Positions 3,442 through 50,043 of a DNA stretch of 64,000 nt are shown one piece after another (within the stretch, counting starts at the first letter, position 1; each line of letters begins with the position of its first letter). A program made the translations under genes and the position numbers. Under the pieces are notes generated by a model. The model was not told the DNA's origin, ran no database searches, and saw only the letters and a program-made list of their open reading frames with translations. The DNA lies in NCBI GenBank assembly GCA_964588165.1, contig CAZPMS010000005.1:3411-67410 (forward strand), given 5' to 3'. The DNA comes from an uncultured Gammaproteobacteria bacterium. Lineage in GTDB: Bacteria > Patescibacteriota > Patescibacteriia > UBA1558 > UBA10009.

Positions 3442-3936
3442 ATGAAAAAAGCCTTATTAATCATTGATGTCCAAAATTATTTTATCAATAAATGGACCCA
3501 AAATGTGCCCCAAAAAATAGTTAAACTAATTGAAGAAGATGATTTTCCTATTATCATTTTCACTAAATTCGTAAATACGCCAGACAGCCATTTTGTTAAA
3601 CAATTCAACTATACAGAATGTACCAAGCCGCCTTATACCGATATAGTGGCTGATCTTTTACCTTGGGTTAAAAAGGATAACGTTTTTGTCAAAAATACTT
3701 ATTCTTCTTTTTTTGATTCTGAGTTTACCAACTATCTTAAAAAGAAAAAAATTGAGGAGCTGATAATTGTTGGGCTTGATACAGAAAATTGCGTGCTAAC
3801 AAATTCTAGGGCTGCTTTTGATAACGGCTATAAAGTTTCTGTGGTGGCCAACTGTTGCGGCAGTTCAACAAGTGGTGATGAAATGCATAAAGCTGCCTTG
3901 GAAATAATAAAAAATAATATAGGTGATGTAATTTAA
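3442..3936 (+). CDS. Isochorismatase-family cysteine hydrolase
   Basis: 164 aa. The LLIIDVQNYF ... IIVGLDTENCVLTNSRAAFDNGYKV pattern is typical of the isochorismatase-like fold, including the catalytic Cys region. Confidence 0.6.
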   Translation: MKKALLIIDVQNYFINKWTQNVPQKIVKLIEEDDFPIIIFTKFVNTPDSHFVKQFNYTECTKPPYTDIVADLLPWVKKDNVFVKNTYSSFFDSEFTNYLKKKKIEELIIVGLDTENCVLTNSRAAFDNGYKVSVVANCCGSSTSGDEMHKAALEIIKNNIGDVI

Positions 3937-3960: not shown

Positions 3961-4090
3961 TAGGACTGGGGGGTCTGGGGACGGGGCTTAACGCCAAGAC
4001 AAAATCTTTAGAAGCTTAATAAAGCTGAGAGTTAATTTTCGCCCCCAGGGGTTTTTGGTCCTTTTTGGCCGCAAAAAGGGCATAAAGAAA
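3961..4090. repeat. Copy A of a ~130-bp repeated intergenic element (second copy at 12861-12995), ending 3 nt before the polA ATG. Contains the 8-4-8 palindrome CCTTTTTG-GCCG-CAAAAAGG.
   Basis: Direct comparison of the two copies by eye shows a shared GC-rich 5' part (ctggggRcgGcgCTTArCGCCAAGACAAAAT), a shared AGCTGAGAGyTAATT block and a shared GGTTTTTGGTCCTTTTTG-N4-CAAAAAGG 3' part. Confidence 0.6.
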
Positions 4091-4092: not shown

Positions 4093-6828
4093 ATGTCTAA
4101 TAAATTTAAAAAAAAGTTTGTAATTATCGACGGTAATGCCCTATTACACAGGGCTTTTCATGCCTTACCGCCCATGACCACTAAAGATGGCACTCTGGTT
4201 AATGCTGCTTACGGTTTTACTTCAATCCTATTAAAAATTATTAAAGAATTACAGCCAGATTATTTATGTGCATCTTTTGATAGGAAAGGTACTACCCTAC
4301 GGGCTGAAGAATTTGCCGAATATAAAGCCCAAAGAAAAAAACAGCCGGATGAACTTTATGCTCAAATTCCGATTATAGAAAATATTTTAGAGGCTTTTAA
4401 TATCCCGGTAATTGATTCTGAAAAAGCAGGCTACGAAGCAGATGATGTTATTGGCACAGTTGTAACTAAACTGACTAAAAGCAATCCTGATATAATCAAC
4501 CTAATAGTGACTGGTGATTTGGATGCTTTGCAGTTGGTAAATAAAAACGTGGAAGTTTTTACTCTTAAAAAAGGTATTTCCGATACTATTACCTATGGCA
4601 TAAAAACTGTTGAAGATAGATACGGAATTAAACCAGAACAATTAATAGATTACAAAGCTTTACGCGGTGACCCATCTGATAATATTCCTGGTGTAAAAGG
4701 TATCGGCGAAAAAACTGCTACTAATTTAATTAAAGAATTCGGCAGTTTGGAAAATCTTTATAAAAAATTTGATAAGGCTGATCTTAAAGATAGAACCAAA
4801 CAACTTCTCAAAGAGAATAAAGACGAAGCTTTTTTAAGTAAAAAACTGGTTACCATTCAAACTGATCTACCTACTAACTTTAAGCTTAAAGATACTAAAA
4901 TTGAAGGCATTAACGGACCGGCCGTAGTTAAACTGTTTACCGAGTTGGAATTTAGAAGCTTAATGAATAAAATTCCTACTGAAGTTGAGGGTATAAAAAA
5001 ACAAGGACAAGATACAATGGAATTTGTAACTTTAGAAACTAAGACTGATGATAAATTTAAATATCAATTAATAAATACTGATGATAAATTTGATAAATTC
5101 CTAAATGATTTAAAAAAACAAAAGGAATTCGCTATTGATACCGAAACTACTTCGCTGGACGTTTGGCAAGCCAAGCTTTTAGGCATCAGTTTTTCTTGGA
5201 AAAAAGATACTGCCTTTTATATTGCCAAACCAACCAACCAATGGTTAAAACAATTAAAACCAATTCTGGAGGATGAGAATATCAAAAAAGTAGGCCATCA
5301 TTTAAAATACGATTATGAAATTTTAATGCAACATGATATTTACTTAAAAGGAATTGGTTTCGACACTTTACTGGCTGCTTACCTTTTAACTTCCGGTTCC
5401 AGAAATCTAGGTTTAGACGATCTGGTTTTTGCCGAACTGGGTTATAGGATGAAACCAATTGAAGACTTAATTGGTTCAAAAGGCAAAAATCAATTAACCA
5501 TGGATAAAGTGCCAGTTGACCAAGTTAGCTGGTATGCCTGTGAAGATGCTGACTTTACCTTAAAACTGGCCAAAGAACTAAAACCTAGGTTAGAAAAAAT
5601 TTCTGATATTGGACTCTTGGAAAAACTGGAGCTGCCAATTATTCCAGTGCTGGCCGACATGGAACAGCAAGGCATTAAAATTGATAAAGGATTTTTAAAA
5701 AAACTGGATCAAGAATTCACCAAGAAGATAAAAAAAGTTAAAGAAAAAATATATAAACTTTCGGGTGCTGAGTTTAATATTGCCTCTCCCCTTCAACTTA
5801 AAGAAATTTTATTTGCCAAACTGGAGATTGATTCCAAAGGGCTTAAAAAAACTAAAACCGGCATTTCTACCGCAGCTGGTGAATTGGAAAAAATGAAAGA
5901 TAGGCACGAAATTATTCCGCTTATTTCTGAATTTAGGGAATATAGTAAATTACAAAATACTTATACCAAGGCTTTATCTAAACTGACTGATAAAAATGAT
6001 AGAATCCATACCAGCTTTAACCAAACAGTTACAGCTACCGGCCGATTTTCTTCTTCTAACCCTAATCTGCAAAACATTCCTATTAGAACGGAATTGGGTA
6101 GAGAAATAAGAAAAGCTTTTGTAGCTGAATCAGGCATGGCTTTAATGGCTGCCGACTATTCACAAATTGAACTAAGAACCATTGCTTCGTTGGCAAATGA
6201 CGACAAGATGATTGCTTCATTTAAAAAAGACGAGGATATCCATGCCCGAACAGCCGCCACCATAAATAAAATTGATATTAGCGAAGTTACCAGCCAACAA
6301 AGGCGGGCCGCTAAAGAAGTAAACTTTGGAGTTATTTACGGCCTGGGCTCAACCGGCCTGGCCCAGCGAACCGGCATTACCAGGCCAGAGGCTAAAGAAT
6401 TTATTAATAAATATTTTAAACTTTACCCTAAGGTAAAAAATTGGCTGGATGAAACCAAACAAATTGCAGCTAGAGATGGCTTTGTAGAAACCTTACTGGG
6501 CCGGAGAAGATATCTGCCAGATATTAATTCCGGCGTGCAAATGATTAGAGCAGCTGCCGAACGAATGGCCATTAATGCTCCTATCCAGGGTACAGCCGCA
6601 GATTTACTTAAAATGGCGATGATTAAAATTCATAACCAACTGCCTGATATTTCAGCCAAATCCAAAATGCTCTTAACTGTCCATGATGAACTGGTTTTTG
6701 AAGTGCCTAAGAATGAAGTTGACAAGGTATCTAAATTCATTAAAAATACAATGGAAAACATCTATACCTTAAAAGTTCCCATTAAGGTTGATGTCCATTC
6801 AGCAAATAACTGGGGTGACTGCAAGTAA
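4093..6828 (+). CDS. polA: DNA polymerase I
   Basis: 911 aa covering the 5'-3' exonuclease domain, the 3'-5' exo-like domain, polymerase motif B (RRAAKEVNFGVIYG) and motif C (HDE). Confidence 0.97.
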   Translation: MSNKFKKKFVIIDGNALLHRAFHALPPMTTKDGTLVNAAYGFTSILLKIIKELQPDYLCASFDRKGTTLRAEEFAEYKAQRKKQPDELYAQIPIIENILEAFNIPVIDSEKAGYEADDVIGTVVTKLTKSNPDIINLIVTGDLDALQLVNKNVEVFTLKKGISDTITYGIKTVEDRYGIKPEQLIDYKALRGDPSDNIPGVKGIGEKTATNLIKEFGSLENLYKKFDKADLKDRTKQLLKENKDEAFLSKKLVTIQTDLPTNFKLKDTKIEGINGPAVVKLFTELEFRSLMNKIPTEVEGIKKQGQDTMEFVTLETKTDDKFKYQLINTDDKFDKFLNDLKKQKEFAIDTETTSLDVWQAKLLGISFSWKKDTAFYIAKPTNQWLKQLKPILEDENIKKVGHHLKYDYEILMQHDIYLKGIGFDTLLAAYLLTSGSRNLGLDDLVFAELGYRMKPIEDLIGSKGKNQLTMDKVPVDQVSWYACEDADFTLKLAKELKPRLEKISDIGLLEKLELPIIPVLADMEQQGIKIDKGFLKKLDQEFTKKIKKVKEKIYKLSGAEFNIASPLQLKEILFAKLEIDSKGLKKTKTGISTAAGELEKMKDRHEIIPLISEFREYSKLQNTYTKALSKLTDKNDRIHTSFNQTVTATGRFSSSNPNLQNIPIRTELGREIRKAFVAESGMALMAADYSQIELRTIASLANDDKMIASFKKDEDIHARTAATINKIDISEVTSQQRRAAKEVNFGVIYGLGSTGLAQRTGITRPEAKEFINKYFKLYPKVKNWLDETKQIAARDGFVETLLGRRRYLPDINSGVQMIRAAAERMAINAPIQGTAADLLKMAMIKIHNQLPDISAKSKMLLTVHDELVFEVPKNEVDKVSKFIKNTMENIYTLKVPIKVDVHSANNWGDCK

Positions 6829-6865
6829 ACTTGAAATTTAAAATTATAAATTTAAAATTTTTTAA

Positions 6866-7813
6866 ATGTTTCTATTCTTACACGGCGAAGATAGTTATCG
6901 TTCGCAAAAAAAACTTAATGAAATAACGGCTAAATTTAAAGAAAAAACTGACCCAACAGGTATAAATATAAATACTTTTTACGGGAAAGATTTTGATATT
7001 GAAAAATTTAATACTGCCTCCAGCCAATCCGGGTTTTTAGTAACTAAAAGATTAATAATTGTAAAAAACTTATTAACCAGTAAGCCTAAAAAGGATCTGG
7101 CCGGACAATTAACTGAATTATTAAAAAATTTAAAAGGCAGCGATAACATTTATATCTTTTGGGAACAAGGCAGCCCCGATAAACGTACGGCTTTATTTAA
7201 ACTTCTCAATAAAGAAAAAAAATACGTCCAGGAATTCAAGGCTTTGGAATACAAAGAACTAGCCGATTGGTTAAAAAATTATTTAAAAGAAGCCGGCAGT
7301 AAAATGACTACTTCGGCTCAACAACTTCTTTTATCTTTTACTGATAACAACTTATGGCAACTGGCCAATGAAGTTGATAAACTGGTAGCTTATAAAAAGA
7401 ACGAAGAAATTACCGAAGAAGATGTTAAACAAATGGTAACGGCCAAGGTTTATGAAAATATTTTCGGCTTAACTGATGCTATTGCCACAGGTGACAAAAA
7501 AAAGAGCCTGCAACTTTTGCAAGAACAGTTCCAGGCGGGCTTAAATGAACAATATGTTTTAACCATGATAATCAGGCAGTTTAGAATTTTGGCCCAACTT
7601 AAACCTTTGGCGGAAAAATATCCGGAATATCAGATCACCAAAGAGACTAAGCTTCATCCCTTTGTGGTTAAAAAAACCTTACCTCAAGTTAAAAAGTTTA
7701 CCGAAGAAAAAATAATAAAGATCTATGATCTGCTTAGCAATCTAGACAGAAAATTCAAATCTACTAAACTTTCTCCGCAAACCTTGATTGATTTGTTTAT
7801 AATGAAGATTTAA
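6866..7813 (+). CDS. holA: DNA polymerase III delta subunit
   Basis: 315 aa. The N-terminus (MFLFLHGEDSYRSQKKL) and overall architecture are typical of HolA. It sits directly downstream of polA. Confidence 0.75.
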   Translation: MFLFLHGEDSYRSQKKLNEITAKFKEKTDPTGININTFYGKDFDIEKFNTASSQSGFLVTKRLIIVKNLLTSKPKKDLAGQLTELLKNLKGSDNIYIFWEQGSPDKRTALFKLLNKEKKYVQEFKALEYKELADWLKNYLKEAGSKMTTSAQQLLLSFTDNNLWQLANEVDKLVAYKKNEEITEEDVKQMVTAKVYENIFGLTDAIATGDKKKSLQLLQEQFQAGLNEQYVLTMIIRQFRILAQLKPLAEKYPEYQITKETKLHPFVVKKTLPQVKKFTEEKIIKIYDLLSNLDRKFKSTKLSPQTLIDLFIMKI

Positions 7814-7847
7814 TTTAAGAAACTAAAAAACCTTGCTCAATATGTGG

Positions 7848-7867
7848 GAACGCGCCACGGCGCGTTC
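7848..7867. terminator. GC-rich hairpin (gaacgcgc-cacg-gcgcgttc) between the convergent genes holA and rpsT. Likely bidirectional terminator.
   Basis: Perfect 8-bp GC stem. T-rich tracts lie on both sides within about 20 nt. Confidence 0.5.
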
Positions 7868-7898
7868 ATACGTTTGAAGGCAAGATTTTTTTATTTAT

Positions 7899-8165
7899 TT
7901 ATTTCTTGGAAGTTTTGGTTTTTTTAGCAAGCCTAGATTTTCTCCTGTTGGCTGTGCCTTTCTTTAACCAGCCAGACTTTACGGCTTTATCAGCGGCTTT
8001 CTGGAACTTTTTGGTTAGTTCCTTTACTTCATCAGATTTACCGGCATCTACGGCTTTTAAAGTCTTTTTAATTAAATCCTTTAAGTTCTTTTTTTCAGCT
8101 GAATTTTTAGCAGTTAACTTTTTAGTTTGCCTTAAGGCTTTCTTAGCAGAATTTGTATTTGGCAT
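7899..8165 (-). CDS. rpsT: 30S ribosomal protein S20
   Basis: 88 aa. The highly basic sequence MPNTNSAKKALRQTKKLTAKN... is a characteristic S20 signature. Confidence 0.9.
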   Translation of the reverse strand: MPNTNSAKKALRQTKKLTAKNSAEKKNLKDLIKKTLKAVDAGKSDEVKELTKKFQKAADKAVKSGWLKKGTANRRKSRLAKKTKTSKK

Positions 8166-8248
8166 ATTTTTGAATTATGTATTAATATTATACTAGATGT
8201 GAGAGTTAAAAAGATTCTAGCATTTTACATTAAATAAATCAAGTCCTT

Positions 8249-8494
8249 ATGAAAACAGAATATTTAACCTATAATGAGCAACGTTTAATTGCCGAGGATT
8301 TATATAATATTTCTGACTCTATTGAAGCTTGCGATAGGCTGGAGAAAAACTATAACATTAAAATAAAACCGGGCCGTTCAGTTAAACTAAACAGCTTTGC
8401 CCGCAAGCTGGATAAAACCAGATTTTTAAATTCAGAAATTGAAAAGGCTATCAAAAGACATTCTGGACATAAAGTAAGTTTAAGAAAACTCTAA
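8249..8494 (+). CDS. Hypothetical small protein (81 aa)
   Basis: Clean ORF followed by a hairpin. No recognised domain. Confidence 0.4.
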   Translation: MKTEYLTYNEQRLIAEDLYNISDSIEACDRLEKNYNIKIKPGRSVKLNSFARKLDKTRFLNSEIEKAIKRHSGHKVSLRKL

Positions 8495-8538
8495 ATAAAA
8501 ATCCGCTGAGTTTTAATCTCAACGGATAAATGACTTGA

Positions 8539-8832
8539 TCATTCGACAACTTTTACGTTCCAGAATAAATTGGATCTAAGGTTATATTCCAGCATAGCGC
8601 CTGTAGAATCAACTACGGTAGCCACTGTAGGACTCCAGGCACCCCTCTCAAGGTTTTTTACTTCCACTACTGCTGGGTTTACCAAGCTGATGACATTAAG
8701 CGCCCTCGAACTGTTGACCCAAAAATCACCCGTAAAAAATATTTCTGCTCCGCCAATAATAATTACACCAATCACAACGAAAACCAGTACAATCAACAAT
8801 TCGCTCAAGGCAAAGCCAGGCCTGCTCTTCAT
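8539..8832 (-). CDS. Type IV pilin / pseudopilin with prepilin N-terminal cleavage-methylation motif
   Basis: KSRPGFALSELLIVLVFVVIGVI is a class III signal (G|F-x-L-x-E-L-L-I-V) followed by a hydrophobic helix. Confidence 0.75.
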   Translation of the reverse strand: MKSRPGFALSELLIVLVFVVIGVIIIGGAEIFFTGDFWVNSSRALNVISLVNPAVVEVKNLERGAWSPTVATVVDSTGAMLEYNLRSNLFWNVKVVE

Positions 8833-8873
8833 GTTTCCCTCTTGTTAAATGATCTAAATGTTAACTACCAAAG

Positions 8874-10040
8874 TTAATCATATTTTAAATTTTGGGTCAA
8901 GTTAGCGTTTATTTTTTCTAAAGCCTCTAGAGGTTTTATTAAATATTTTGAGTAATTGTCTTTAGTTAAATTTTCTAATTGAATTGCCTTACTGACATTA
9001 AAATCGCCGATGGCGGTTCTTTTTAATTCTTCAAGAATTGCTCCAGTTCCAAGTTTTTGACCAATATCATATGCTAAAGTTCTAATATATGTACCTGTTG
9101 AACATTTAACCCTAAGATTGATGATTGATGATTGATGATCAAAATTTAATAACTCTAAATTATAAATTTCAATCTCACCTGGCTTTCGTTCCACTTCCTT
9201 ACCTTTACGAGCTAATTCATATAATTTCTTTCCTTGAATTTTTTTTGCCGAATACATCGGCGGTAACTGCTGTTGCTTACCTATAAAAGAATTAATGACT
9301 TCATTAATTTTTAATTTTGTTTTGTCATTTTGACTTTTAATTTTTGACTTTTGAATTTGACCAGTACGGTCATATGTATCCGAAGTCACTCCTAATCTAA
9401 CCTCTGCCTCATACTCTTTAGCTAAAACATCAAAAAGTCCAACCATTTTAGTTGCCTTGCCCACAGCACAAATTAACAGGCCAGTAGCAAACGGATCTAA
9501 AGTTCCGGTATGTCCAATCTGTTTTATTTTTAAGATTGACCGCAGTTTTGCCACCACATCATGCGAAGTCCAACCATCTTCTTTATCTATCAGCAAAAAT
9601 CCAGACTGGCTATCTTCAACAGACTTTCTAATTTTTTTACCTTTACAAACTTCTTCTTTAAATACTTCCAACCTTTCTATACTAAAAAATAGATTTGAAT
9701 TTGCACGTAATTCATTCAATTCCGCCAAATGGGATTGCTGGTCATAGCCCAAAGCAATCACTTGCGAATTTTCTTCCCTGATGATTTTATATGGATCTTT
9801 TTCATCACCCAAAACTAGTTTGTAGTGAGTAGGTTTTAGTGAGTAGCTTAATAGCTTTTTTAAATTTTCTAATCTTTGTTTTTCATTAAAAAATGGCTGT
9901 TTACCCTTGGCTTTAATCACATTCTTATCCCTAGCTATAACCACAACCAAAAAATCTCCAAATTCTTTGGCTTGTTTAATTAAATTGATATGTCCGGGAT
10001 GGATTATATCAAACGTACCTGCTATAAGAACTTTTTTCAT
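8874..10040 (-). CDS. truB: Fusion protein: N-terminal RibL/TagD-like cytidylyltransferase (FAD synthase-like) domain plus C-terminal tRNA pseudouridine(55) synthase TruB
   Basis: N-terminus AGTFDIIHPGHINLI carries the (H/T)xGH nucleotidyltransferase motif. The C-terminal half (GHTGTLDPFATGLLICAVGKATK ... CSTGTYIRTLAYDIG) is TruB. Contains an in-frame (gattgat)x3 repeat. Confidence 0.8.
   Translation of the reverse strand: MKKVLIAGTFDIIHPGHINLIKQAKEFGDFLVVVIARDKNVIKAKGKQPFFNEKQRLENLKKLLSYSLKPTHYKLVLGDEKDPYKIIREENSQVIALGYDQQSHLAELNELRANSNLFFSIERLEVFKEEVCKGKKIRKSVEDSQSGFLLIDKEDGWTSHDVVAKLRSILKIKQIGHTGTLDPFATGLLICAVGKATKMVGLFDVLAKEYEAEVRLGVTSDTYDRTGQIQKSKIKSQNDKTKLKINEVINSFIGKQQQLPPMYSAKKIQGKKLYELARKGKEVERKPGEIEIYNLELLNFDHQSSIINLRVKCSTGTYIRTLAYDIGQKLGTGAILEELKRTAIGDFNVSKAIQLENLTKDNYSKYLIKPLEALEKINANLTQNLKYD
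9116..9139. repeat. Heptamer tandem repeat (gattgat)x3.4 inside the truB domain. Encodes HQSSIIN on the minus strand.
   Basis: Seen directly. Shares a 23-nt identical string (in reverse complement) with 38896-38923. Confidence 0.8.
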
Positions 10041-10645: not shown

Positions 10646-12757
10646 CTACAGTTGGGTTTTTAATTTTTTAAGCTGTTTTATTTTATCTCTTAACTCGGCC
10701 GCTTTTTCAAATTCCAAATTTTCAGCAGCCAGCTTCATCTCATTTACTAAACCATTAACAATTCTTCTTAATTCATCTTTAGGAATAGTTTTGTAATCTT
10801 TTAATTCCTCCCTTTTTGTAGCCAGGAGTGACTTAGCAGACCTGGCTTTAATATCTTTAGGGCTAAACTTAAGGCTATCGCCTACTTCTTTTTCAATCGA
10901 CTTAGGTTTTATCTTATGTTCTTTATTAAAATCTTCTTGGATATGGCGCCTACGCTCCACTTCACCAATTGCCCGTTTCATGGAACCTGTCATCTTATCA
11001 GCATACATTATTACCCTGCCCTCTTGGTGACGAGCGGCTCGGCCCATGGTTTGGATTAACGAAGTTTCTGACCGTAGGAAACCCTCCTTATCGGCATCTA
11101 AGATTGCTACTAATGTTACTTCGGGTAAATCCAAGCCTTCTCGCAATAAATTGATGCCTACCAAAACATCAACCTTGCCCATTCTTAAATCCCTTAAAAT
11201 ATCCAAACGTTCTAAAGTATTTATTTCGGAATGAAGATAGTGGGATTTGATTTTAAGTTCTTTGAGATATTCACTAATCTCTTCAGCCAGCCTTTTAGTT
11301 AGGGTGGTTACCAAAACCCGTTGTTTGTTTTTAATAGTTTTCTTAATCTCTTCCAATAAATTATCCAGTTGATTATCAGTTGGCCTGATTTCTATAGCTG
11401 GATCCAATAAACCGGTTGGCCTGATAACTTGCTGGGTAACAGCCGATGATGGATTATGGATTATAGATTCTAAATCTTTCTTATCAACCAACTCCTTCAT
11501 CAGATTTCCGACTTTAACTTTCTTGGTCTTTACTCCGGATTGGCGATATTCATAAGCAGCCGGTGTAGCCGAAACATAAACTACTTTATTTATATGTTTG
11601 GCAAATTCAGCAAACTTTAAAGGGCGGTTATCCAGGGCCGAAGGCAGCCTAAAGCCAAAATCTATTAAAGTCTGTTTTCTGGATCTGTCACCGTTATACA
11701 TGCCGTTAATTTGCGGAACCGTCATGTGCGATTCATCAATAAACATTAAAAAATCGTCTGGGAAAAAATCCATTAAAGTTGCTGCCTGCTCTCCGGGCTT
11801 ACGGCCGGTTAAATACCTGGAATAATTTTCTATGCCATTGCAGTAGCCTACTTCTTCCATCATTTCCAAATCATAATTGGTTCGCTGCTCTATCCTTTGT
11901 GCTTCTATTAATAAATTTTTACTTTTTAAATATTCAACTCGCTCTTCCATATCTTTCCTTATTTGAACAAATGAACTTTTTAACCTTTCTTCCGGAGTTA
12001 CAAAATGCTTACCTGGAAAAATATCATACTGGATCATGGGTTTTGGATCATGGGTTATTCTTTTCCCTGTTATATAATCTACTTTTGATAAAATCTCAAT
12101 CTTATCACCATCAAATTCTATTCTGATGATTTGATTTTTCTCTTCCACCGGAAATACTTCCACTGTATCGCCTCTTACTCTAAAGTTGCCCCGATAAAAA
12201 CCTTCATCATTCCTAGTATATTGTAATTCAGTTAAGTTCCTTAAAAACTTATCTCTCTTTTTAATGTTGCCCACCTTTAATTTAATACTCATGTTTTCAT
12301 AATCAGTTGGCGATCCTAATCCATAGATGCAAGAAACCGAAGCTACAATAATAACATCTTTTCTGGTTAGCAAAGCATTGGTAGAAGCATGCCTTAAGCG
12401 CTCAATCTCTTCATTAATATCTGCTTCCTTTTCTATATAGGTGTCAGTAGAAGGCTTATAGGCTTCTGGTTGGTAATAATCGTAGTAGCTGACAAAATAA
12501 TGTACCGAGTTATTAGGGAAAAATTCCCTGAATTCTGAAGCTAGCTGGGCCGCCAAAGTTTTGTTATGGGAAATAATTAAAGTGGGTTTTTGGACTTTTT
12601 GGATAATATTAGCCATGGTAAACGTTTTACCACTTCCGGTCACGCCCAAAAGCGTCTGGTGCTTTTTGCCAGCTTCTATGCCGCGAATCAACTTCTTAAT
12701 TGCTTGAGGTTGATCACCCGTAGGTTTGAAATTAGATTTTAATTTAAAACTACCCAT
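10646..12757 (-). CDS. uvrB: Excinuclease ABC subunit B
   Basis: 703 aa with Walker A ([10 protein letters not shown]), helicase motifs and the C-terminal UvrB/UvrC interaction helix. Confidence 0.97.
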
Positions 12758-12860: not shown

Positions 12861-12995
12861 ATGAATAGAGAGTCAGGGGCCTGGGGGCGGCGCTTAGCGC
12901 CAAGACAAAATAATAAAAGATAAACAGAGCTGAGAGCTAATTGGCGCCCCTAGTGGTTTTTGGTCCTTTTTGCCACCAAAAAGGACAAGTGAATT
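12861..12995. repeat. Copy B of the ~130-bp repeated element (see 3961-4090). Contains CCTTTTTG-CCAC-CAAAAAGG.
   Basis: About 75-80% identity to copy A over its length, with the palindrome arms perfectly conserved. Lies between the uvrB promoter and the 3' end of the orphan gene at 13064-13480. Confidence 0.6.
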
Positions 12996-13002
12996 GATTT
13001 TT

Positions 13003-13038
13003 AAGACCAAAAAAAGAGCGGTTGGGACTTACCGCTCT
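13003..13038 (-). terminator. Terminator for the minus-strand orphan gene (gagcggt-tgggactt-accgctc hairpin, then a T-run on the minus strand)
   Basis: 7-bp stem. On the minus strand the hairpin is followed by TTTTTTTGG. Confidence 0.5.
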
Positions 13039-13063: not shown

Positions 13064-13480
13064 CTATTTGTTGTCTGGTGCAAGCTTACAAATTATATCA
13101 AACTTATCTAGAATTCCTCCACCAGGACAAGCCTTATCTACTGCTTGAATAATACTAGCCAAAGAATTATATACATCTTTTACGGCCCAGTTTGGCAACT
13201 CGTGAGTACCACTTAGCCACCTGTCCTTTTTAACAGGCACCATAACCCACAAACGTGAAACAGTTCCTGATCGACCCGGAACTCTGTCCTCCGCCAGCTT
13301 TAGAGAAACCAACCTACAACTAGTTGGTGTGACATTTTTCACCTTTTGAGGAAAAACATCTCTAAAAGGAACTATACAATCGTCCAAAAAACCCATCACT
13401 CTTCGAATGGCAGCCCTTTGACGATCAAGTTCTTCAGCTCCACGAAGAAATAGCTCAACATCAACCGCGTTTGTATTCAT
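13064..13480 (-). CDS. Hypothetical protein. GC-rich orphan ORF with a strong SD (AAGGAG, 5-nt spacer), 138 aa from the internal Met.
   Basis: The track ORF is 13064-13555. The Met with RBS ggagattacaATG at 13480 is the probable start. No recognised domain. GC content is clearly above neighbouring DNA. Confidence 0.45.
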   Translation of the reverse strand: MNTNAVDVELFLRGAEELDRQRAAIRRVMGFLDDCIVPFRDVFPQKVKNVTPTSCRLVSLKLAEDRVPGRSGTVSRLWVMVPVKKDRWLSGTHELPNWAVKDVYNSLASIIQAVDKACPGGGILDKFDIICKLAPDNK

Positions 13481-13671
13481 TGTAATCTCCTTATCCCGTG
13501 TCCGGGATGTTTGGCATGTCGGCCTTGTTAATGTCCCGTATTTGCTACAATCCAACTTTTATATTTTAAACTTATATATTATTTTGTCAATTTATTTTTA
13601 AATCTAAGACAAAAAAATCTCATATAAAAAACTTCCACCTGGTGGCAGAAGCTAGCTATGATTTATAGCTA

Positions 13672-14205
13672 TTAGTTTTGCGGAATTCCATGCAGCCTTA
13701 ATTGTATTCCACCGTAATAATCCAGCAACATAATTATGGCTGACCATAGTCCAGCAACAATTACTGTGGCCCAAAAATTTACCAGGGCAATCAAAGGCAG
13801 TAAATGCCAGACATCAAAAATGCTAAGATGTTTTAATTTCTGCTTACTCACAATTATCGAAACTATTGACGGACCTAGTAAATAAATAACTCCCAAGGGG
13901 TAAAAAAAACTTACATATTTGTAACATGAATATGCTACGACTGCCCCTATAGTAATTGCATTGGCCCAAGCATCAGTGTCATAGCTACCCAATCTTCCCT
14001 CAACACAAGGCAATACATTATCATCATCGGAAGGATCATATTTTCCGTACATATTAGAAAAAACAATCCCCATAACTAACCAAGCAGGGCCAAAAAATGC
14101 CATAGCTTTGAATATGACCGACAAGTCTGGGATAGAAGTTTCACCAAAAGTCATCAAAAAAGCCATAAGCAACCACATTACTACAAAAAAGCCTGGCGAA
14201 ATCAT
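13672..14205 (-). CDS. Polytopic membrane protein, function unknown
   Basis: 177 aa with four or five predicted TM helices. No recognised motif. Confidence 0.45.
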   Translation of the reverse strand: MISPGFFVVMWLLMAFLMTFGETSIPDLSVIFKAMAFFGPAWLVMGIVFSNMYGKYDPSDDDNVLPCVEGRLGSYDTDAWANAITIGAVVAYSCYKYVSFFYPLGVIYLLGPSIVSIIVSKQKLKHLSIFDVWHLLPLIALVNFWATVIVAGLWSAIIMLLDYYGGIQLRLHGIPQN

Positions 14206-14409
14206 GACTCTTCCTTCCGTTAAACTTTTTAAATGTGCTGTGAGACTTTTACCTTATATTATAGATGCTCCACTGTCAATTGATTTTTAAGCCCAAAATT
14301 GCTACATTTATAAACATAGATAGCACGGATTAAATCACTGATTGACGCGAATCTATCCGCGGACATCAGCGAAAATCTGCGATCTAAATTAGCGTTATCC
14401 GCGATAAAT

Positions 14410-16920: not shown

Positions 16921-16938
16921 TAAAAAGTTGGGATAAAA

Positions 16939-17003
16939 TTAGGATGCTAGAATGCTAGTTTACTGACATCCTAACCTCCTGACATCCTAACCTCCTAAAT
17001 ACT
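16939..17003 (+). promoter_or_regulatory. Conserved promoter/leader module, copy 1: extended -10 (TGcTAGAAT) plus two tandem CATCCTAACCTCCT boxes ending 7 nt before the ATG
   Basis: ttAGGATGCTAGAATGCTAGTTTACT..GACATCCTAACCTCCTGACATCCTAACCTCCTaaatactATG. Near-identical modules occur at 23144-23207 and 61314-61395. Confidence 0.5.
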
Positions 17004-17360
17004 ATGAGAAAATATCAAGCCGAACATGCAAGGTTGGAGCAATATAAAAAAAGTGGTTTAAAAACCACAGAAAAAGCTGCCGATAGCATTGCTACCTGGT
17101 CTGGCTCTTGGAATTTTTTAATGCTCCATATTATTTGGTTTGCTTTGTGGCTGGCGCTCCAACTGAATGTTGGGCTACTTACTTTAATAGTATCCCTAGA
17201 AGCCATTATCTTAATGAATGTTTTATTAATGGCCCAAACCAGACAAGCTAAAAAAGATGACTTAAGAGACGAAGCCGATTACCAGGCCGATAAGCATACA
17301 GCCGATAAAATGGATGAACTAATTAGGACTATTAAAAGAATCGAAAAAAAGATTAAATGA
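17004..17360 (+). CDS. DUF1003-family membrane protein
   Basis: 118 aa. The conserved WSGSWNFLMLHIIWFALW segment and two TM helices are typical of DUF1003. Confidence 0.6.
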   Translation: MRKYQAEHARLEQYKKSGLKTTEKAADSIATWSGSWNFLMLHIIWFALWLALQLNVGLLTLIVSLEAIILMNVLLMAQTRQAKKDDLRDEADYQADKHTADKMDELIRTIKRIEKKIK

Positions 17361-22700: not shown

Positions 22701-23132
22701 ATTATTTACATGCTTAAGCTTAACCATATGGTTGAAGATAAAATCCACCAAAGGTCTATCGGGCCATACTCCTTGGTAACCCAGCAGCCGCTTGGCGGAA
22801 AAGCCCAGGGTGGTGGCCAACGTTTTGGCGAAATGGAAGTTTGGGCCCTAGAAGCCTATGGCGCAGCCCATACTCTGCAAGAAATTCTGACCATTAAATC
22901 AGACGATGTGCCCGGACGATCCAAGGCTTATGAATCAATTATCAAAGGAGAGCCTATTACTAAATTGAATATCCCCGAATCATTTAATGTTTTAACCAGA
23001 GAACTAAAAGGCCTGTGTTTAGATGTAGAACTTATTAAAGAAAAAAAGCTAAAACCAGAAGTTAAAGCTGATAAAAAGGAAAGTAAGAAAGATAATAAAA
23101 CAGAAAAAGAAAAAGTAAAAAAAGAAAAATAA
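19722..23132 (+). CDS. rpoB: DNA-directed RNA polymerase subunit beta
   Basis: 1136 aa with the conserved RpoB blocks throughout, for example [17 protein letters not shown] and [13 protein letters not shown]. Confidence 0.99.
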
Positions 23133-23143
23133 ATTAAGATAAT

Positions 23144-23207
23144 AAGAATGCTAGAATGTCAGTTTACTATCGTTCTAACCTCCTAGCATCCTAACCTTCT
23201 ATTAAAT
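23144..23207 (+). promoter_or_regulatory. Conserved promoter/leader module, copy 2, between rpoB and rpoC (extended -10 TGcTAGAAT plus CATCCTAACCTTCT box before the ATG)
   Basis: taAGAATGCTAGAATGTCAGTTTACT...TAGCATCCTAACCTTCTattaaatATG. Compare 16939-17003 and 61314-61395. Confidence 0.5.
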
Positions 23208-26200
23208 ATGCCAAATCCCTCTTCTACAAAAACAACTTTTATGTCCGATTTCTCGGTACCTGCTTTAGAATTTGACGGCATTCGTTTAAAAATCGCTTCG
23301 CCCGAACAAATTCATAAGTGGTCCCATGGTGAAGTTTTAAAGCCGGAAACAATAAACTACCGTACTCAAAAACCTGAAAAAGACGGCTTATTTTGTGAAA
23401 AGATTTTTGGACCCTCCAAAGATTGGGAGTGTTATTGCGGCAAATATAAACGCATTCGTTATAAAGGAATTGTTTGTGATAAGTGCGGGGTAGAAGTTAC
23501 CAGATCAATTGTCAGGCGTGAAAGAATGGGAAATATTGATTTAGCTGCCCCAGTTTCTCATATCTGGTTCCTGCGGGGCATCCCTTCAAAAATAGGCTTG
23601 GTATTGGATTTATCCATTCAAGAACTGGAAAAAATAATTTACTTCGCTTCTTTTATTATTTTAAATGTAGATGAAGAACTAAAAATCCAAACTTTGGAAC
23701 AAATTAAAGGCGAATTAAAAAACAAAAAAAAGGCTGTAGAAAAAGAGTTTGAGCAAAAATTAGATGAACTCAATAAAAAGAAAGCTGAAAGCAAAAAATT
23801 AAATTTTGATAAAGAACTTCAACTTTTAGATGATATTAAAAACGAAAAAATTAAAACATTAGAAACGGCGGCCGACCAGGCTAAAAAAGAATTAAGAGAT
23901 CTAAAACCGTTTAAAATAATTTCAGAAAGTATCTACCAAGATCTATCCTTAAAATATGGCCATGTGTTTGAAGCCGGAATTGGTGCCGAAGCTATCCGCA
24001 AATTACTTACCGATATTAATCTTTCAAAACATGCTAAAGACCTAGACAAGCAAATTGCCGAAGCTATACCTTCTAAAAAGAAAAAGCTAATCAGAAGGGC
24101 CAAGCTGGTTAAAAGCCTGTTGGTTAACAAAATTAGGCCGGAATGGATGATTCTAAATGTGGTACCGGTTATTCCGCCGGATCTTAGGCCAATTGTCCAA
24201 CTGGATGGCGGCCGTTTTGCCACCTCCGACCTTAATGATCTCTATCGCAGAGTAATTAACCGTAATAACCGTCTTAAACGCCTAAAAGAGCTTAAGGCCC
24301 CTGAAGTTATTCAAAGAAATGAAAAAAGGATGCTCCAAGAAGCAGTTGATGCCCTGATAGATAACAGCGCCAGAAGAGGTAAAACAGTTACCGCTTCTAC
24401 CGGACAAAAAAGGATGCTTAGAAGCATCGCTGATATGCTTAAGGGTAAGCAAGGCAGATTTAGGCAAAACTTACTTGGTAAAAGAATCGACTATTCCGGT
24501 CGTAGCGTAATTGTTATCGGACCAAAAATGGGCATGGACCAATGCGGATTGCCCAAAACTATGGCCTTGGAGTTATTTAGACCATTTGTTATCTCCCAAC
24601 TTATTAGCAGAGAAATTGTCCATAACGTTAGAAGTGCCAACCGCTATATTGAGCAAGACCACGAAGAAGTTTGGGATATTTTAGAAGAAATTACCAATAA
24701 ATCACATGTTTTCTTAAACCGGGCGCCTACTTTGCACAGACTAGGCATTCAAGCTTTCCAGCCTATATTAATTGAAGGCAAGGCCATCCAGATCCATCCG
24801 ATGGTTTGCAGGGCTTTTAATGCTGATTTTGACGGCGACCAAATGGCTGTCCATGTACCCATTACCGAAGAAGCCAAAGAAGAAGCTGCCGAAATAATGC
24901 TTTCTACTAAAAACCTACTTAAGCCGGCCACCGGCGAACCGGTAACCACTCCTGACCAAGATATTGTTTGGGGCTGTTATTACCTTACCTTTATAAATCC
25001 CGGACAGGATAAGCCTAAACAACATTTTACTGATGAAAATGAAGCTAAAACCGCCCATGCACTTAAAAAAATCAGGCTTCATGACCGCATTGCCTTGCCT
25101 ATTAACAATAAACTTACCGAGACCACAATCGGTAGAGTTATTTTTAACGAAATTGTCCCTGAAAAACTCAAATTCGTTAACCAAGATATGACCTCTAAAG
25201 ATCTTAAACAGCTGGTTGCAAAATCTTTAGAAATTAATGGCTTTAAAGATTCGGTAAAATTTTTAGACCAGCTTAAAAAATTAGGTTATGAAACAATTAC
25301 TGCTTCTGGCCTTTCTTGGGGCATGAATGATATTCCAACGGTAGACCAAAAACCAGAAATCATTGCCAAGGGAGAAAAACAGGTAGAACAAATCCAAGAA
25401 CAATTTGAACAAGGCTTGCTTACTAATAAAGAACGCTATGTTAAAGTTATAGAAGTTTGGAATGGCATTAAAGATGAAATTACCGAACTTTCCAAAACCT
25501 CTTTTGATACTTCTAGTTCCCTATATTCAATTATTAATTCCGGTGCCAGAGGTTCTTGGGCCCAAATGATTCAGATAATGGGCATGAAAGGCATGGTTAT
25601 TAACCCAGCCGGTGAAATTATTGAGCTGCCGGTTAAAGCTAACTTCCATGAAGGCTTGGATGTGTTAGAATACTTTATTTCTACTCATGGTACCAGAAAA
25701 GGCTTATCAGATACTGCCTTAAGAACAGCCAATGCCGGTTATTTAACCAGAAGGTTAGTTGATGTTTCCCAAGATTTGGTAGTTATCGAAACCGACTGTA
25801 AAGATAAAATAGGCCTCACAATTACTAAAAAAGAGGCTGATGATATGGGAGAAACTTTAGCCAACTTAGCGTGGGGCAGAACTCTAATGGAAGATATAGT
25901 TGATTCTAAAACAAAGAAAGTTATTGTTAAAAAGGGAGAAATTGTTAACCAAGAACATTTAAGACAACTGGAGGGGGTTGAAATAGATTCATCTATACGT
26001 GTCCGTTCGCTAATGACCTGCCAATCTGTTAGGGGTGTTTGCCAAAAATGTTATGGTTTTGATTTAGGCTTTAATAAGCCAGTTGCTATGGGTGTGGCCG
26101 TAGGTATTGTAGCTGCCCAAAGCATTGGTGAACCCGGCACCCAACTTACCATGAGAACCTTCCATACTGGCGGTGTGGCTGGTGCTGATATTACCCAAGG

Positions 26201-28711: not shown

Positions 28712-28800
28712 CTTACTTCTCCTTCCTTGACCAACGGCCTTTTATTACAAAGAACTTTTTTCTCTCAAAATCCACTTTTTAAAAATGAACTTTGGAAGAA

Positions 28801-28823
28801 AGGCGAGAATAAATTTCTCGCCT
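28801..28823 (-). terminator. Hairpin aggcgagaa-taaat-ttctcgcct, terminator of cassette gene 2. A paralogous copy lies at 29301-29323.
   Basis: 9-bp stem about 25 nt 3' of the stop codon of the gene at 28848-29195. The hairpin sequence is repeated downstream of the next gene. Confidence 0.45.
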
Positions 28824-29230: not shown

Positions 29231-29300
29231 ATTTAACTGAAATGAACAATCGCTTTTCCCTTTCAAAATTTACTTCTTTTTGAAATAAACTTTGAAAGGA

Positions 29301-29323
29301 AGGCGAGAAATTCATTCTCGCCT
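29301..29323 (-). terminator. Hairpin aggcgaga-aattcat-tctcgcct, terminator of cassette gene 3 and paralogue of 28801-28823
   Basis: 8-bp stem about 55 nt 3' of the stop codon of the gene at 29380-29661. Confidence 0.45.
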
Positions 29324-36092: not shown

Positions 36093-37562
36093 ATGAAATA
36101 CGGAAACTGGCTAAACCTCTGCTTTATTGTTAAAATAACCTTATTATTTATGGAACAAACTAAAAAAATCGCCCGCAACACAATTTGGCAGGTAATTGGT
36201 AAAATAATCGGAACTGCCCTTGGAGTTGTAACTATTGGTTTACTCACCAGATACTTAGGTACAGAAGATTTTGGCCTCTACACCACAGCCGTAGCTTTTA
36301 TGCAGTTTTTTGGCGTGCTGGTAGATATGGGCCTATATTTGATTTGCCTTAAAGAAATCTCAGCCAAGCCGGACAAAGAAAACTTTATATTAAGTAATAT
36401 TTTCACCATAAGAGTAATTTCAGCCATCATATTTATGGGCGGCGGTACACTGCTAATTTTCTTATTCCCCTACCCAATGGTGGTAAAACTTTCGGCTGCT
36501 ATTGTCAGTTTGTCATTCTTTTTCATGACGTTGGTACAGACTTTGACATCAGTTTTCCAAAAATATTTAAAAATGGGCCAAGTGGCCATAGCTGAAGTTG
36601 TTGGTAGGTTTGGTTTTTTAATTGTGATTCTGCTTTTTGTTTTTTATAAAGGAAATCTGCCAGCCTTAATGTGGGGCAATGTTGTAAATACCTTTATTTA
36701 TTTTATTATCCTTTGGTTTTTAATAAAACGATACGTAAAAATTAAATGGGCCTGGGATTTTGAATATTGGAAAGTGGTTTTTAAAAAAAGCTGGCCCATT
36801 GCCCTAGGCGTTGCTTTTAATTTAGTCTATTTTAGAGCTGATACTATTATCCTTTCTTTATTTAAACCAGCAACTGATGTAGGAATATATGGCGCCCCTT
36901 ACAAAATCCTGGAAATTATTGCCACCTTCCCCCATATGTTTATGGGGCTGGTTATGGCACCTCTAACTGCCGCCTGGATTGCCGGCAATTTAGATAAATT
37001 TAAAAACATTACCCAAAAAACTTTTGACTTTTTTATAATCATTCTGGTGCCGATGGTTTTGGGTACTCTACCGCTGGCTGGAGGCATTATGAAACTAATT
37101 GCTGGGGAAGAATTTACAGTTTCTGGTCCGATCCTTTCCATATTGATGCTGGCCACCGGTATTATCTTTTTAGGAATTTTGATGACCTATATAATTGTGA
37201 TTTTAGATAAGCAAAAAGCTATGCTTAAATATTTTTTAATAGCAGCGATCCTAGCTTTAATCGGCTACTTTATTTTTATCCCTAAATATTCTTACTTTGG
37301 CGCTGCCTGGGTAACGGTGGTTATAGAAGGCTTTATTGTAATAACCTCATGGTTGATATTTTATAAATATGCCAAAATTAAACTTTCCTTAAAAATCTTT
37401 TTCAAAAGCCTGGTGGCCGGATTGATTATGATGCTGGCTATTTACCAACTGCCTGGCTTGCATATTTTATTAAATATCCTAATTGGAGCTGTAATTTATG
37501 GCTTAATTATGATAATTACAAAAGGAATTGACAAAAAATTGCTTAGTGATATAGTCAAATAG
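36093..37562 (+). CDS. Polysaccharide/oligosaccharide flippase (MOP superfamily, Wzx/MurJ-like). The probable true start is the internal Met near 36150.
   Basis: 489 aa with about 12-14 TM helices and an N-terminal ARNTIWQVIGKIIG motif typical of Wzx-type flippases. Confidence 0.65.
   Translation: MKYGNWLNLCFIVKITLLFMEQTKKIARNTIWQVIGKIIGTALGVVTIGLLTRYLGTEDFGLYTTAVAFMQFFGVLVDMGLYLICLKEISAKPDKENFILSNIFTIRVISAIIFMGGGTLLIFLFPYPMVVKLSAAIVSLSFFFMTLVQTLTSVFQKYLKMGQVAIAEVVGRFGFLIVILLFVFYKGNLPALMWGNVVNTFIYFIILWFLIKRYVKIKWAWDFEYWKVVFKKSWPIALGVAFNLVYFRADTIILSLFKPATDVGIYGAPYKILEIIATFPHMFMGLVMAPLTAAWIAGNLDKFKNITQKTFDFFIIILVPMVLGTLPLAGGIMKLIAGEEFTVSGPILSILMLATGIIFLGILMTYIIVILDKQKAMLKYFLIAAILALIGYFIFIPKYSYFGAAWVTVVIEGFIVITSWLIFYKYAKIKLSLKIFFKSLVAGLIMMLAIYQLPGLHILLNILIGAVIYGLIMIITKGIDKKLLSDIVK
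37528..37555 (+). promoter_or_regulatory. Promoter TTGACA-16 nt-TATAGT embedded in the 3' end of the flippase gene. It is duplicated at 38121-38148.
   Basis: A 32-bp identical string ATTGACAAAAAATTGCTTAGTGATATAGTCAA occurs at both positions, each about 40-45 nt upstream of a small membrane protein gene. Confidence 0.45.
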
Positions 37563-37597
37563 ATTTTCGCACTTTCAAAACCACAAAGGAGATAGAG

Positions 37598-38071: not shown

Positions 38072-38086
38072 TTTAACCTAATAACC

Positions 38087-38112
38087 AACCGTTCAACATT
38101 GAACGGTTTTTT
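38087..38112 (+). terminator. Terminator (ccgttcaa..ttgaacgg + T6). It is duplicated at 38583-38610.
   Basis: Seen directly. Confidence 0.65.
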
Positions 38113-38120
38113 ATTAAAAA

Positions 38121-38148
38121 TTGACAAAAAATTGCTTAGTGATATAGT
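38121..38148 (+). promoter_or_regulatory. Duplicated copy of the TTGACA-16-TATAGT promoter
   Basis: Identical 32-bp string as at 37527-37558. Confidence 0.45.
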
Positions 38149-38187
38149 CAAGTAAATAGTAACTTAACATAACCTAAGGAGAGAACT

Positions 38188-38547: not shown

Positions 38548-38582
38548 CTAAAGAAGCAGTCATCTGCTTAAAACTAACATTC

Positions 38583-38610
38583 AACCGTTCAACTCTGAAC
38601 GGTTTTTTAT
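38583..38610 (+). terminator. Terminator (ccgttca-actc-tgaacgg + T6)
   Basis: Paralogous to 38087-38112. Confidence 0.65.
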
Positions 38611-38645
38611 TTGAAAAATAAGCTCTGGCGGGGTAAAATATAACC

Positions 38646-47838: not shown

Positions 47839-48219
47839 ATGAAAAAATTCTTAACCAAAAAAAATGTTCTTTCACTGGCTGGCTTAACTCTAGGGCTTAT
47901 GCCGGCAGTAGTTTCTGCCCAAGCATCTTTAGGAATTGAGGCTGCTGCCAGTACTGGTTTAGGTTCAAGAGACCTTAAAGATACCATTACATCTGTTTTA
48001 AATGTTTTATTGGGTTTCTTGGGTATTATTGCTGTCATTGTTATTTTACTTGGTGGCTTTAAGTGGATGACTGCAGGTGGTAACGAAGATAAAGTTGCTG
48101 AAGCTAAAAAACTTATTGGCGCAGGTATTGTCGGTTTAGTTATTATCTTAGCAGCTTACGCTATCGCTATTTACGTTATCAATACTATTTCAACGGCTAC
48201 AGTAGATATAGGAGGATAG
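47839..48219 (+). CDS. Pilin-like array member P2
   Basis: 126 aa from the Met with the strong RBS AGGGGGTGAAGAA-ATG (track ORF starts at 47806). Core ILLGGFKWMTAGGNEDKVAEAKKLIGAGIVGLVII. Confidence 0.75.
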   Translation: MKKFLTKKNVLSLAGLTLGLMPAVVSAQASLGIEAAASTGLGSRDLKDTITSVLNVLLGFLGIIAVIVILLGGFKWMTAGGNEDKVAEAKKLIGAGIVGLVIILAAYAIAIYVINTISTATVDIGG

Positions 48220-48287
48220 TGGCTGTATAGACTTAAGAGACTTAGATATTTAGTATTCTATTTAACTTGAATACAATTTAGACAAAT

Positions 48288-48319
48288 CCTCCTGAAGTGT
48301 ATTATTCTTCTTCAGGAGG
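48288..48319 (+). other. 10-bp perfect hairpin cctcctgaag-N12-cttcaggagg between P2 and P3. Its 3' arm contains an AGGAGG SD-like sequence.
   Basis: Seen directly. No T-run follows. The hairpin lies about 30 nt upstream of the P3 start. Confidence 0.4.
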
Positions 48320-48351
48320 AAAGTGTAGATTGTATAAGCCACAATAATAGA

Positions 48352-48810
48352 ATGGACTTCCTCTTTAAAAACAAAAAAAATATAAAAAAGGGTATCTTTA
48401 CCCTATTTTTATTATTGGTTGCTGTTTCTATGATGCCTATCAATGTCAGTGCCGAAACTGATGTTGCCGATGTTGCCGAAGATTTTTTAACCAACGTAGC
48501 CCAGCAAGGCGGAGTAATCCAAGATCCGCAATCAGCTCCCACGGCAGCCCAACTAATTGGCATAAAAATAAAAACCATTCTTAATTTTGTAGGAGTTATC
48601 TTTTTTATTTTAGTTATTTATGGTGGAATAATCTGGATGACAGCCAGTGGCAATGAAGAACAAGTGCAAAAAGCCGTAAAAATATTCAAAGGGGCAGTTA
48701 TTGGAATTATTGTAGTAATACTTGCCTACCTATTAACTAATTATGTTGTTTTTAAAATATCTGATCTAAACCAAATTAGCGAGCCAACTATTGAAGAAGA
48801 TCCTATATAA
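48352..48810 (+). CDS. Pilin-like array member P3
   Basis: 152 aa. Core VIYGGIIWMTASGNEEQVQKAVKIFKGAVIGIIVVILAY. Confidence 0.75.
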   Translation: MDFLFKNKKNIKKGIFTLFLLLVAVSMMPINVSAETDVADVAEDFLTNVAQQGGVIQDPQSAPTAAQLIGIKIKTILNFVGVIFFILVIYGGIIWMTASGNEEQVQKAVKIFKGAVIGIIVVILAYLLTNYVVFKISDLNQISEPTIEEDPI

Positions 48811-48821
48811 TCCTAAACAAA

Positions 48822-49187: not shown

Positions 49188-49188
49188 T

Positions 49189-49641: not shown

Positions 49642-49652
49642 TAAATAAAATT

Positions 49653-50024: not shown

Positions 50025-50043
50025 ATAAACTTTAAGGCTATAT

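Follow-up and report, generated by a model that had tools for sequence, protein, structure and literature searches.

The window, by which we mean the whole 64-kb stretch of DNA analysed, contains two copies of an intergenic repeat, one directly before polA and the other beside the promoter region of uvrB. The structured repeat family is real and newly seen, and it is of a known general kind. We tentatively propose, as the leading explanation, that the element is a dispersed, non-autonomous repeat and that its transcript forms a terminator-like rod followed by a hairpin. The element has conserved ends around a variable centre, compensatory and wobble changes maintain its helices, and it is a lineage-specific insertion at two junctions that vary within this group. 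The positions of all parts are listed in Table 1.

Table 1. Parts of the repeat and neighbouring features in the window.
Feature	Position	Strand	Remarks
Isochorismatase-family gene	3442-3936	+	upstream of copy A; Pfam PF00857, E = 1.9e-31
Copy A of the repeat	3966-4084	+	fills the isochorismatase-polA spacer; covariance model R1, 126.7 bits
5' G-tract, copy A	3968-3973	+	copy B 12876-12879; GGGG kept in A, B and L038
Outer helix P1, 5' strand, copy A, CUGGGGACG	3975-3983	+	pairs with 4040-4048; copy B CUGGGGGCG, 12881-12889
Inner helix, copy A, UUAAC/GUUAA	3988-3992 with 4031-4035	+	copy B UUAGC 12894-12898 with GCUAA 12936-12940
Apical region, copy A	3993-4030	+	conserved CGCCAAGACAAAAU and GCUGAGAG blocks; 17-nt stretch differing between A and B; unrelated in L038
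Outer helix P1, 3' strand, copy A, CGCCCCCAG	4040-4048	+	copy B CGCCCCUAG, 12945-12953
GGUUUUUGG, copy A	4050-4058	+	U-tract 4052-4056; copy B 12955-12963; invariant in A, B and L038
Hairpin 2, copy A, GUCCUUUUUG-GCCG-CAAAAAGGGC	4058-4081	+	palindrome of the sequence-only reading; copy B 12963-12986, loop CCAC
polA	4093-6828	+	identified by homologues
uvrB	10646-12757	-	promoter-like site 12844-12816 (minus strand), directly beside copy B
Copy B of the repeat	12874-12989	+	between uvrB promoter region and two-gene islet, divergent from uvrB; covariance model R1, 125.1 bits
14-nt direct repeat AATTGATTTTTAAG	12992-13005 and 14278-14291	+	exactly two matches in the window; flanks the two-gene islet

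An earlier, sequence-only reading had described a composite element in two copies of about 75-80% identity. Both copies are present, the conserved blocks that it quoted are found in the alignment of A and B, and BLASTN revealed an identity of 81.4% over 113 nt (E = 3e-25). A repeat search within the window also groups the two copies, with 81% identity over 74 nt. The homology spans from about 10 nt 5' of the G-tract to GGRCA just past the palindrome. Copy A, which had been taken to end 3 nt before the polA start codon, loses its homology to copy B at about 4084 (GGGCA), 8 nt before the ATG at 4093. The 80 nt further upstream of the two copies show no significant similarity (98 of 500 shuffles score as well), and therefore no promoter is common to them. 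A covariance model (R1) was built from copies A and B and one outside homologue (L038). With filters off, R1 found only copies A and B across the whole window, and the next match reached 24 bits. That third match (59760-59875, minus strand) was rejected as a homologue; an ordinary terminator (AUCCGC...GCGGAU, then a U-tail) with a U/A hairpin accounts for it, which makes it an analogue. The GC content of the element is 49-50%, compared with 35.6% for the window, and none of the short ORFs running through it on either strand is conserved between A and B. Copy A is 100% identical in an independent ENA contig (L079) from the same organism. In this contig polA is called as two ORFs of 545 and 311 aa (6487-9211), probably owing to a frameshift or an assembly error.

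The genes beside the copies had been called correctly as isochorismatase, polA and uvrB, and copy B indeed lies beside a promoter-like site of uvrB and points away from that gene. Copy A lies 40 nt after the isochorismatase stop codon, and its hairpin 2 ends 12 nt before the polA ATG. Copy B is downstream of no plus-strand gene and is followed by none. The nearest full-length homologue of the window PolA is 72-77% identical, and the homologues place the window in Candidatus Komeilibacteria (Patescibacteria/CPR). The window also encodes recA, ruvA, ruvC, an alkylation-repair gene, rpoB/rpoC and ftsK; the R1 scan located the element at none of the first four. No transposase, integrase, reverse transcriptase or RNA-guided nuclease is encoded in the 64 kb. 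Between uvrB and ruvA, starting 5 nt after copy B, there is an inserted islet of 1.29 kb. Two hypothetical genes on the minus strand (13064-13555 and 13672-14205) and a terminator of its own (13015-13038) make up this islet, which looks like a cassette insertion with a duplicated target or att core.

From 5' to 3' the element consists of the G-tract, a long imperfect helix with a variable apex of ~35 nt, GGUUUUUGG, and a 10-bp hairpin GUCCUUUUUG/CAAAAAGGRC. In both copies the outer helix CUGGGGRCG/CGCCCCYAG is separated by an internal loop from the inner helix UUARC/GYUAA. The predicted RNA folds reach -44.1 kcal/mol for copy A (z = -2.15) and -43.8 kcal/mol for copy B (z = -2.46), moderately better than shuffles, and the fold of the L038 homologue has a z of -3.09. 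RNAalifold of the three sequences yields 32 pairs, four of them with changes on both sides. The outer helix in L038 is CUGGGGUAGCC/GGCUACCCCAG, in which positions 7 and 8 are changed on both sides relative to copy B (G-C to U-A and C-G to A-U). In the inner helix, an A-U pair of copy A is replaced by G-C in copy B (RNAalifold columns 26/67). In addition, RNAalifold pairs the G-tract (columns 4-7) with the U-tract (columns 87-90) as G.U in A, B and L038; therefore this pairing is possible only in plus-strand RNA. A local hairpin of copy B, GGCGC-UUA-GCGCC, is broken in copy A, suggesting decay.

The perfect 8-4-8 palindrome of the sequence-only reading, with its arms kept while the spacer differs, is real and extends to 10 bp. 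In copy A it is closed by G4058-C4081 and includes one U.G pair, with GCCG as the loop; in copy B it is closed by G12963-C12986 and is perfect, with CCAC as the loop. Homologues have loops of 4 to 8 nt and arms that vary in concert, and hairpin 2 is therefore a folded structure and no rigid dimer site of fixed spacing in DNA. The 18-mer GGTTTTTGGTCCTTTTTG, which includes GGUUUUUGG and is common to other lineages, is found exactly twice in the window; with up to three mismatches there are four matches against 0.30 expected.

Apart from copies A and B, only one full-length copy is known, L038, which scores 115 bits with R1. This copy has the 3' end of mutL on one side and a small convergent gene on the other; it is antisense to mutL and lies 80 nt after the small gene. 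Its host belongs to a different Patescibacteria lineage, the best match of its MutL (L081) being 59% identical. L038 keeps both ends of the element (GGGGUCUGGGG, and AAUUGGC...CCCCAGUGGUUUUUGG plus hairpin 2), and its interior is unrelated to A and B. All three full-length CPR copies adjoin DNA-repair genes (polA, uvrB and mutL), and the mutL case is independent of the selection made in the first reading of the window. By a rough estimate, only a few percent of random insertions would give L038 a repair-gene neighbour by chance. With three copies of inconsistent orientation, coincidence and a real association are indistinguishable. Four phased G-tracts (CAGGGATTATCAGGGGACATCAAGGGAAATCAGGG), a G-quadruplex-type motif, lie just upstream of the copy in L038 (6990-7045, minus strand), and the 5' ends of copies A and B are likewise unusually rich in G-runs. 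In L081 an IS110-type transposase (7351-8847, weak Transposase_20 match) is located 1.9 kb from mutL, beside a 1.4-kb gene-free gap.

The insertion is evident from comparison with relatives. Five related Patescibacteria loci with syntenic polA and uvrB lack the element upstream of both genes, and BLAST, nhmmer and covariance-model searches of ~85 kb of these relatives gave no match. L081, a relative of L038 at the mutL locus, is also without it. Because the element is absent from the orthologous sites, it is an insertion. The isochorismatase-polA junction of L003 has no spacer, the stop codon of the first gene overlapping the start codon of the second. In L004 a defence island with EcoRI-methylase (restriction-modification), Fic and GmrSD genes (5402-9631) occupies this junction, exactly where the window has copy A, and other small genes are found there in L005/L006 and L080. 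Both copy sites are variable hot spots, as seen from the L004 island at the site of copy A and the islet with the 14-nt repeats abutting copy B. Reading the two copies as att sites of an island spanning polA-uvrB was rejected, since this segment is syntenic core genome in the relatives.

Based on these data, we propose a model for the element. A non-autonomous intergenic repeat of ~120 nt would have entered this Candidatus Komeilibacteria genome at two variable gene junctions, and would act as a folded single strand, most likely the plus-strand transcript. Its first part would be a long imperfect rod made of the 5' G-tract, an outer helix of 9-11 bp, an inner helix of 5 bp and the variable apex, with the 3' strand of the rod running into GGUUUUUGG to give an intrinsic-terminator-like unit. 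The U/A-rich 10-bp hairpin 2 would follow directly as the second part. The element is presumably transcribed, and it may stop or insulate transcription arriving from upstream, for copy A after isochorismatase and for L038 between convergent genes, leaving a structured end on neighbouring transcripts. Its spread may have relied on a trans-acting function encoded outside the window.

Similar to intrinsic terminators, including their tandem-hairpin forms, the element has a GC-rich helix followed by a U-tract, and two of the three CPR copies are located just after a gene end. However, the helix encloses ~56 nt instead of a loop of 3-8 nt, and there are only five U's, which start after a gap of 3 nt instead of 0-2 nt. 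The sequence of the element is conserved across lineages, whereas that of ordinary terminators is not. The terminator part of the proposal is thus atypical; a scan of the window with a simple terminator consensus did not call the element, and copy B has no plus-strand gene upstream that it could terminate. A terminator followed by a U/A hairpin that starts from the U-tail was also observed at 59760-59810, 28760-28822 and 29257-29322, all on the minus strand and at unrelated intergenic sites, and this recurrence suggests that the layout itself may be functional in these organisms. The latter two sites, 500 nt apart, carry similar terminators (GGCGAGAA...TTCTCGCC), each followed by a long U/A hairpin UUCCUUUC...GAAAGGGAA of -15 to -23 kcal/mol. 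At 59760-59875, the pairing partner of the terminator's U-tail is AAAAUAAGG, which immediately precedes the next gene.

Short dispersed structured intergenic repeats are represented by REP/BIME, bcr1 of the Bacillus cereus group, the Rickettsia palindromic elements and the Correia/ERIC-type elements, and they often act as terminators or RNA-stability elements once transcribed. Like these repeats, the present element is intergenic, multi-copy, 100-150 nt long and higher in GC than its surroundings, with stable hairpins, conserved ends, a variable centre and presence or absence at orthologous sites, and related families occur in tandem or inverted clusters. It differs from them in sharing no common sequence, in the very few copies seen and in its host, which has the streamlined genome of CPR. 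In contrast to Correia elements and MITEs it is devoid of terminal inverted repeats and target-site duplication, and in contrast to REP it has no conserved GTAG, which precedes copy A only. The MITE-like repeat suggested earlier therefore holds in part: the element is inserted and dispersed and has conserved ends around a variable centre, but not the terminal inverted repeats or the target-site duplication. The inverted repeat CTGGGGRCG...CGCCCCYAG, together with TTARC/GYTAA inside it, is internal, with ~10 conserved nt on its left and ~40 on its right. No direct repeat was found at the homology boundaries of A, B and L038, and the 64-kb window contains no parent insertion sequence or transposase. 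A REP/RAYT assignment is opposed by two copies in 64 kb and by the absence of a Y1 transposase from the window. Some of these points also weigh against the dispersed repeat that we favour: its inverted repeat is internal, with 45 conserved nt to the right, no target-site duplication is seen, genes for a transposase, reverse transcriptase or RNA-guided nuclease are missing from the window, there are only two copies in 64 kb and three full-length copies in all, and the broken local hairpin suggests that copy A is decaying. Moreover, a neutral repeat does not predict repair-gene neighbours for all three CPR copies.

In metagenomic bacteria that are unrelated and higher in GC, the last ~50 nt of the element are found again within intergenic repeats, both multi-copy and tandem. 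A metagenome scan with the exact 18-mer GGTTTTTGGTCCTTTTTG gave 72 loci, 14 of which carry the complementary arm and form about six families. The contigs with this 3' module have a GC content of 39-57%, and at least two of them (L013 and L016) could be CPR. The module of ~50 nt reads CGCNGCCAG-GGUUUUUGG-UCCUUUUUG-loop-CAAAAAGGAC; among its loci, the ~10 nt that precede the 18-mer are also similar and have the consensus CGCNGCCAG. Tandem arrays with a period of 84-124 nt are found in L022 (560-1210, minus strand) and L068 (870-1170), two copies 370 nt apart in L013 (7520-8291, minus strand) and an inverted pair in L052 (1900-2420); the other loci have single copies. The units of these four loci (~85-125 nt) are otherwise unrelated, and all end in GGUUUUUGG plus UCCUUUUUG/CAAAAAGGAC. 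Full-length module copies have a GC-rich helix that ends 1-4 nt ahead of the U-tract, and the short ~84-nt tandem units of L022 are without the 5' strand of this helix. For the tandem forms, a CRISPR, TIGR or ToxI-type array was rejected, as the 'spacers' are themselves repeated.

Variants in the arms of hairpin 2 are mostly wobble-compatible on the plus strand, with C changed to U opposite G and A to G opposite U, and L013 has U.G variants. The inverted copy in L052 shows a C-G to U-A double change and has both arms one base shorter. Together with the compensatory changes in the outer and inner helices, these variants speak in part for the RNA stem under selection that had been suggested earlier. 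The orientation of the module relative to its neighbours is mixed, and in the long intergenic regions of L013 and L016 it runs antisense to the genes on both sides. Across 15 module loci, no protein is repeatedly encoded next to the module. In L077 the module is located ~200 nt upstream of an ECF sigma / anti-sigma operon.

In an Rfam search of the window, only tRNAs reached the gathering score, the best sub-threshold E-values being at least 0.8, and Rfam matched none of 13+3 homologous loci at gathering or permissive thresholds. Plasmids and phages searched by BLAST and viral contigs searched with the hairpin pattern gave no match, and scans of genome contigs and viral contigs with the head pattern gave chance matches or none. 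A full-text literature search for the motif sequence gave no relevant paper, and the titles and abstracts retrieved on CPR repeats or structured RNAs revealed none of this kind. A rather speculative idea, to which we give little weight, is that the module is an undescribed portable structured motif, either the cis handle of a new kind of mobile RNA/ssDNA element or a site bound by some widely conserved factor; its carrier in CPR would then lie preferentially beside replication/repair genes (polA, uvrB, mutL).

Conserved 5' and 3' parts around a variable middle are also typical of sRNA paralogues. Each copy might be an independent trans-acting sRNA of ~120 nt, with the invariant single-stranded CGCCAAGACAAAAU as the seed and the rod plus U-tract as the terminator. 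Such a role would suit copy B, which stands alone and divergent from uvrB with a plausible TTGACC-17-TAAATA upstream, as well as the modules of L013 and L016 lying antisense to both neighbours in long intergenic regions and the wobble-compatible variants on the plus strand. However, the copies have no conserved promoter: the regions upstream of A and B, though containing AT-rich promoter-like strings, are not significantly similar, and a promoter scan calls none on the plus strand. The candidate seed is not conserved in L038, and its complements are not enriched in the window (21 against 14.6 expected; 7 of 100 shuffles do as well). The element is also absent from close relatives. We consider an sRNA family unlikely, if still worth weighing.

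The element might instead function as single-stranded DNA, as a recombination or transposition site of the REP/RAYT, IS200/IS605-end or attC kind, whose hairpins would serve mobility or cassette capture. Its conserved ends and variable centre fit such a site, and the lack of terminal inverted repeats and target-site duplication is also a property of HUH-transposase elements; tandem, direct and inverted clusters are seen in other lineages. Similar to integron attC sites, which are imperfect palindromes of ~60-140 nt conserved at the ends alone, the element has an outer helix, an unpaired internal loop or spacer, an inner helix and a variable tip. It is adjacent to variable gene cassettes, both window copies being located at junctions of varying cassettes or islands, with the 1.29-kb islet 5 nt after hairpin 2 of copy B. 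Despite this resemblance, the attC consensus RYYYAAC/GTTRRRY (R''/R') is not found at the ends of the element; the only match is in the inner boxes of copy A (GCTTAAC/GTTAATT), and copy B has none. The element has no integrase or cassette array and carries an extra U-tract and a second hairpin. The window encodes no Y1/HUH transposase, RAYT or integron integrase, no protein recurs at the 15 module loci, and plasmids, phages and viral contigs are without a match. In addition, GTAG is present in copy A only, and the rod is extended by G.U pairs, which require RNA. A single-stranded DNA site is, in our judgement, slightly less likely than an sRNA family.

Copy A, directly before polA with hairpin 2 ending 12 nt from the ATG, has the position of a cis-acting leader or attenuator of repair genes, in which the rod/U-tract terminator would be switched in response to a protein or ligand, and hairpin 2 would determine whether the downstream start codon is accessible. 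The polA, uvrB and mutL neighbours of the three CPR copies agree with this, as do the arms of hairpin 2, the 3' arm AAAAAGGR resembling a Shine-Dalgarno sequence and the 5' arm UCCUUU an anti-Shine-Dalgarno sequence. The other copies do not fit a leader: copy B points away from uvrB with no plus-strand gene after it, and the copy in L038 is antisense at the 3' end of mutL. Orthologous polA, uvrB and mutL loci are without the element, and L038 does not keep the interior, in which a ligand pocket would be expected. We regard a leader as improbable.

The damage-response operator of the sequence-only reading, a dsDNA site for a dimeric repressor that was favoured by perfectly conserved palindrome arms around a differing spacer and by the repair genes beside both window copies, is largely refuted and very improbable, as the spacer varies from 4 to 8 nt and the arm length changes too, the element is missing at recA, ruvA, ruvC and the alkylation-repair gene and at the five related loci, the palindrome of copy B is centred 217 nt away from the start codon of uvrB and ~130 nt past its -35 element, and conservation reaches ~90 nt beyond the palindrome. 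An SOS/LexA-type operator would be a palindrome of fixed spacing upstream of several damage-inducible genes (recA, uvr, ruv), accompanied by a repressor gene; the window ORFs scanned include no LexA-like protein, in agreement with the earlier remark that there is no LexA gene. Three other candidates were rejected. A DGR template/variable repeat pair is opposed by the lack of a reverse transcriptase, the intergenic position of both copies, the indels and the mismatches that are not restricted to adenines. A sigma-54 promoter would have GG-N10-GC, where GG-N8-GC is found. The match of GGGGTCTG to a Tn3-type end covers only 8 nt and has no inverted partner.

Other repeats were also observed in the window. 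A second family with 77-88% identity (16937-17011, 23117-23215 and 61287-61391) contains GGATGCTAGAATGTCAGTTT and tandem ACATCCTAACCTCCT units, and its copies end 4-6 nt before the start codons of an ORF at 17004, rpoC at 23208 and yebC at 61396. In these copies, the CCUCC motif reads in the sense of the anti-Shine-Dalgarno sequence. A promoter-like 39-mer, TTGACA-N17-TATAGT, is duplicated with 95% identity (37526-37564 and 38119-38157), as is a terminator (38072-38120 and 38568-38616), and together they mark tandem small transcription units ~500-600 bp apart. The region 48055-52290 comprises eight to nine tandem paralogous coding units of ~410 bp each with the motif ~WMTAGGNEE, an array of small paralogous proteins.

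The genomes of CPR/Patescibacteria are tiny and tightly packed, so a GC-rich, structure-conserving repeat between core genes is unusual. The repeat marks sites of genome plasticity and splits the isochorismatase-polA junction, which is spacer-free in one relative (L003). If the shared 3' module is no real motif, the result would still be a useful negative, in that the polA/uvrB 'operator' is no signal of a damage regulon. If the module is a real cross-lineage motif, it would be a structured element missing from Rfam, and would offer a way to learn how small repeats spread where genomes contain almost no transposases.
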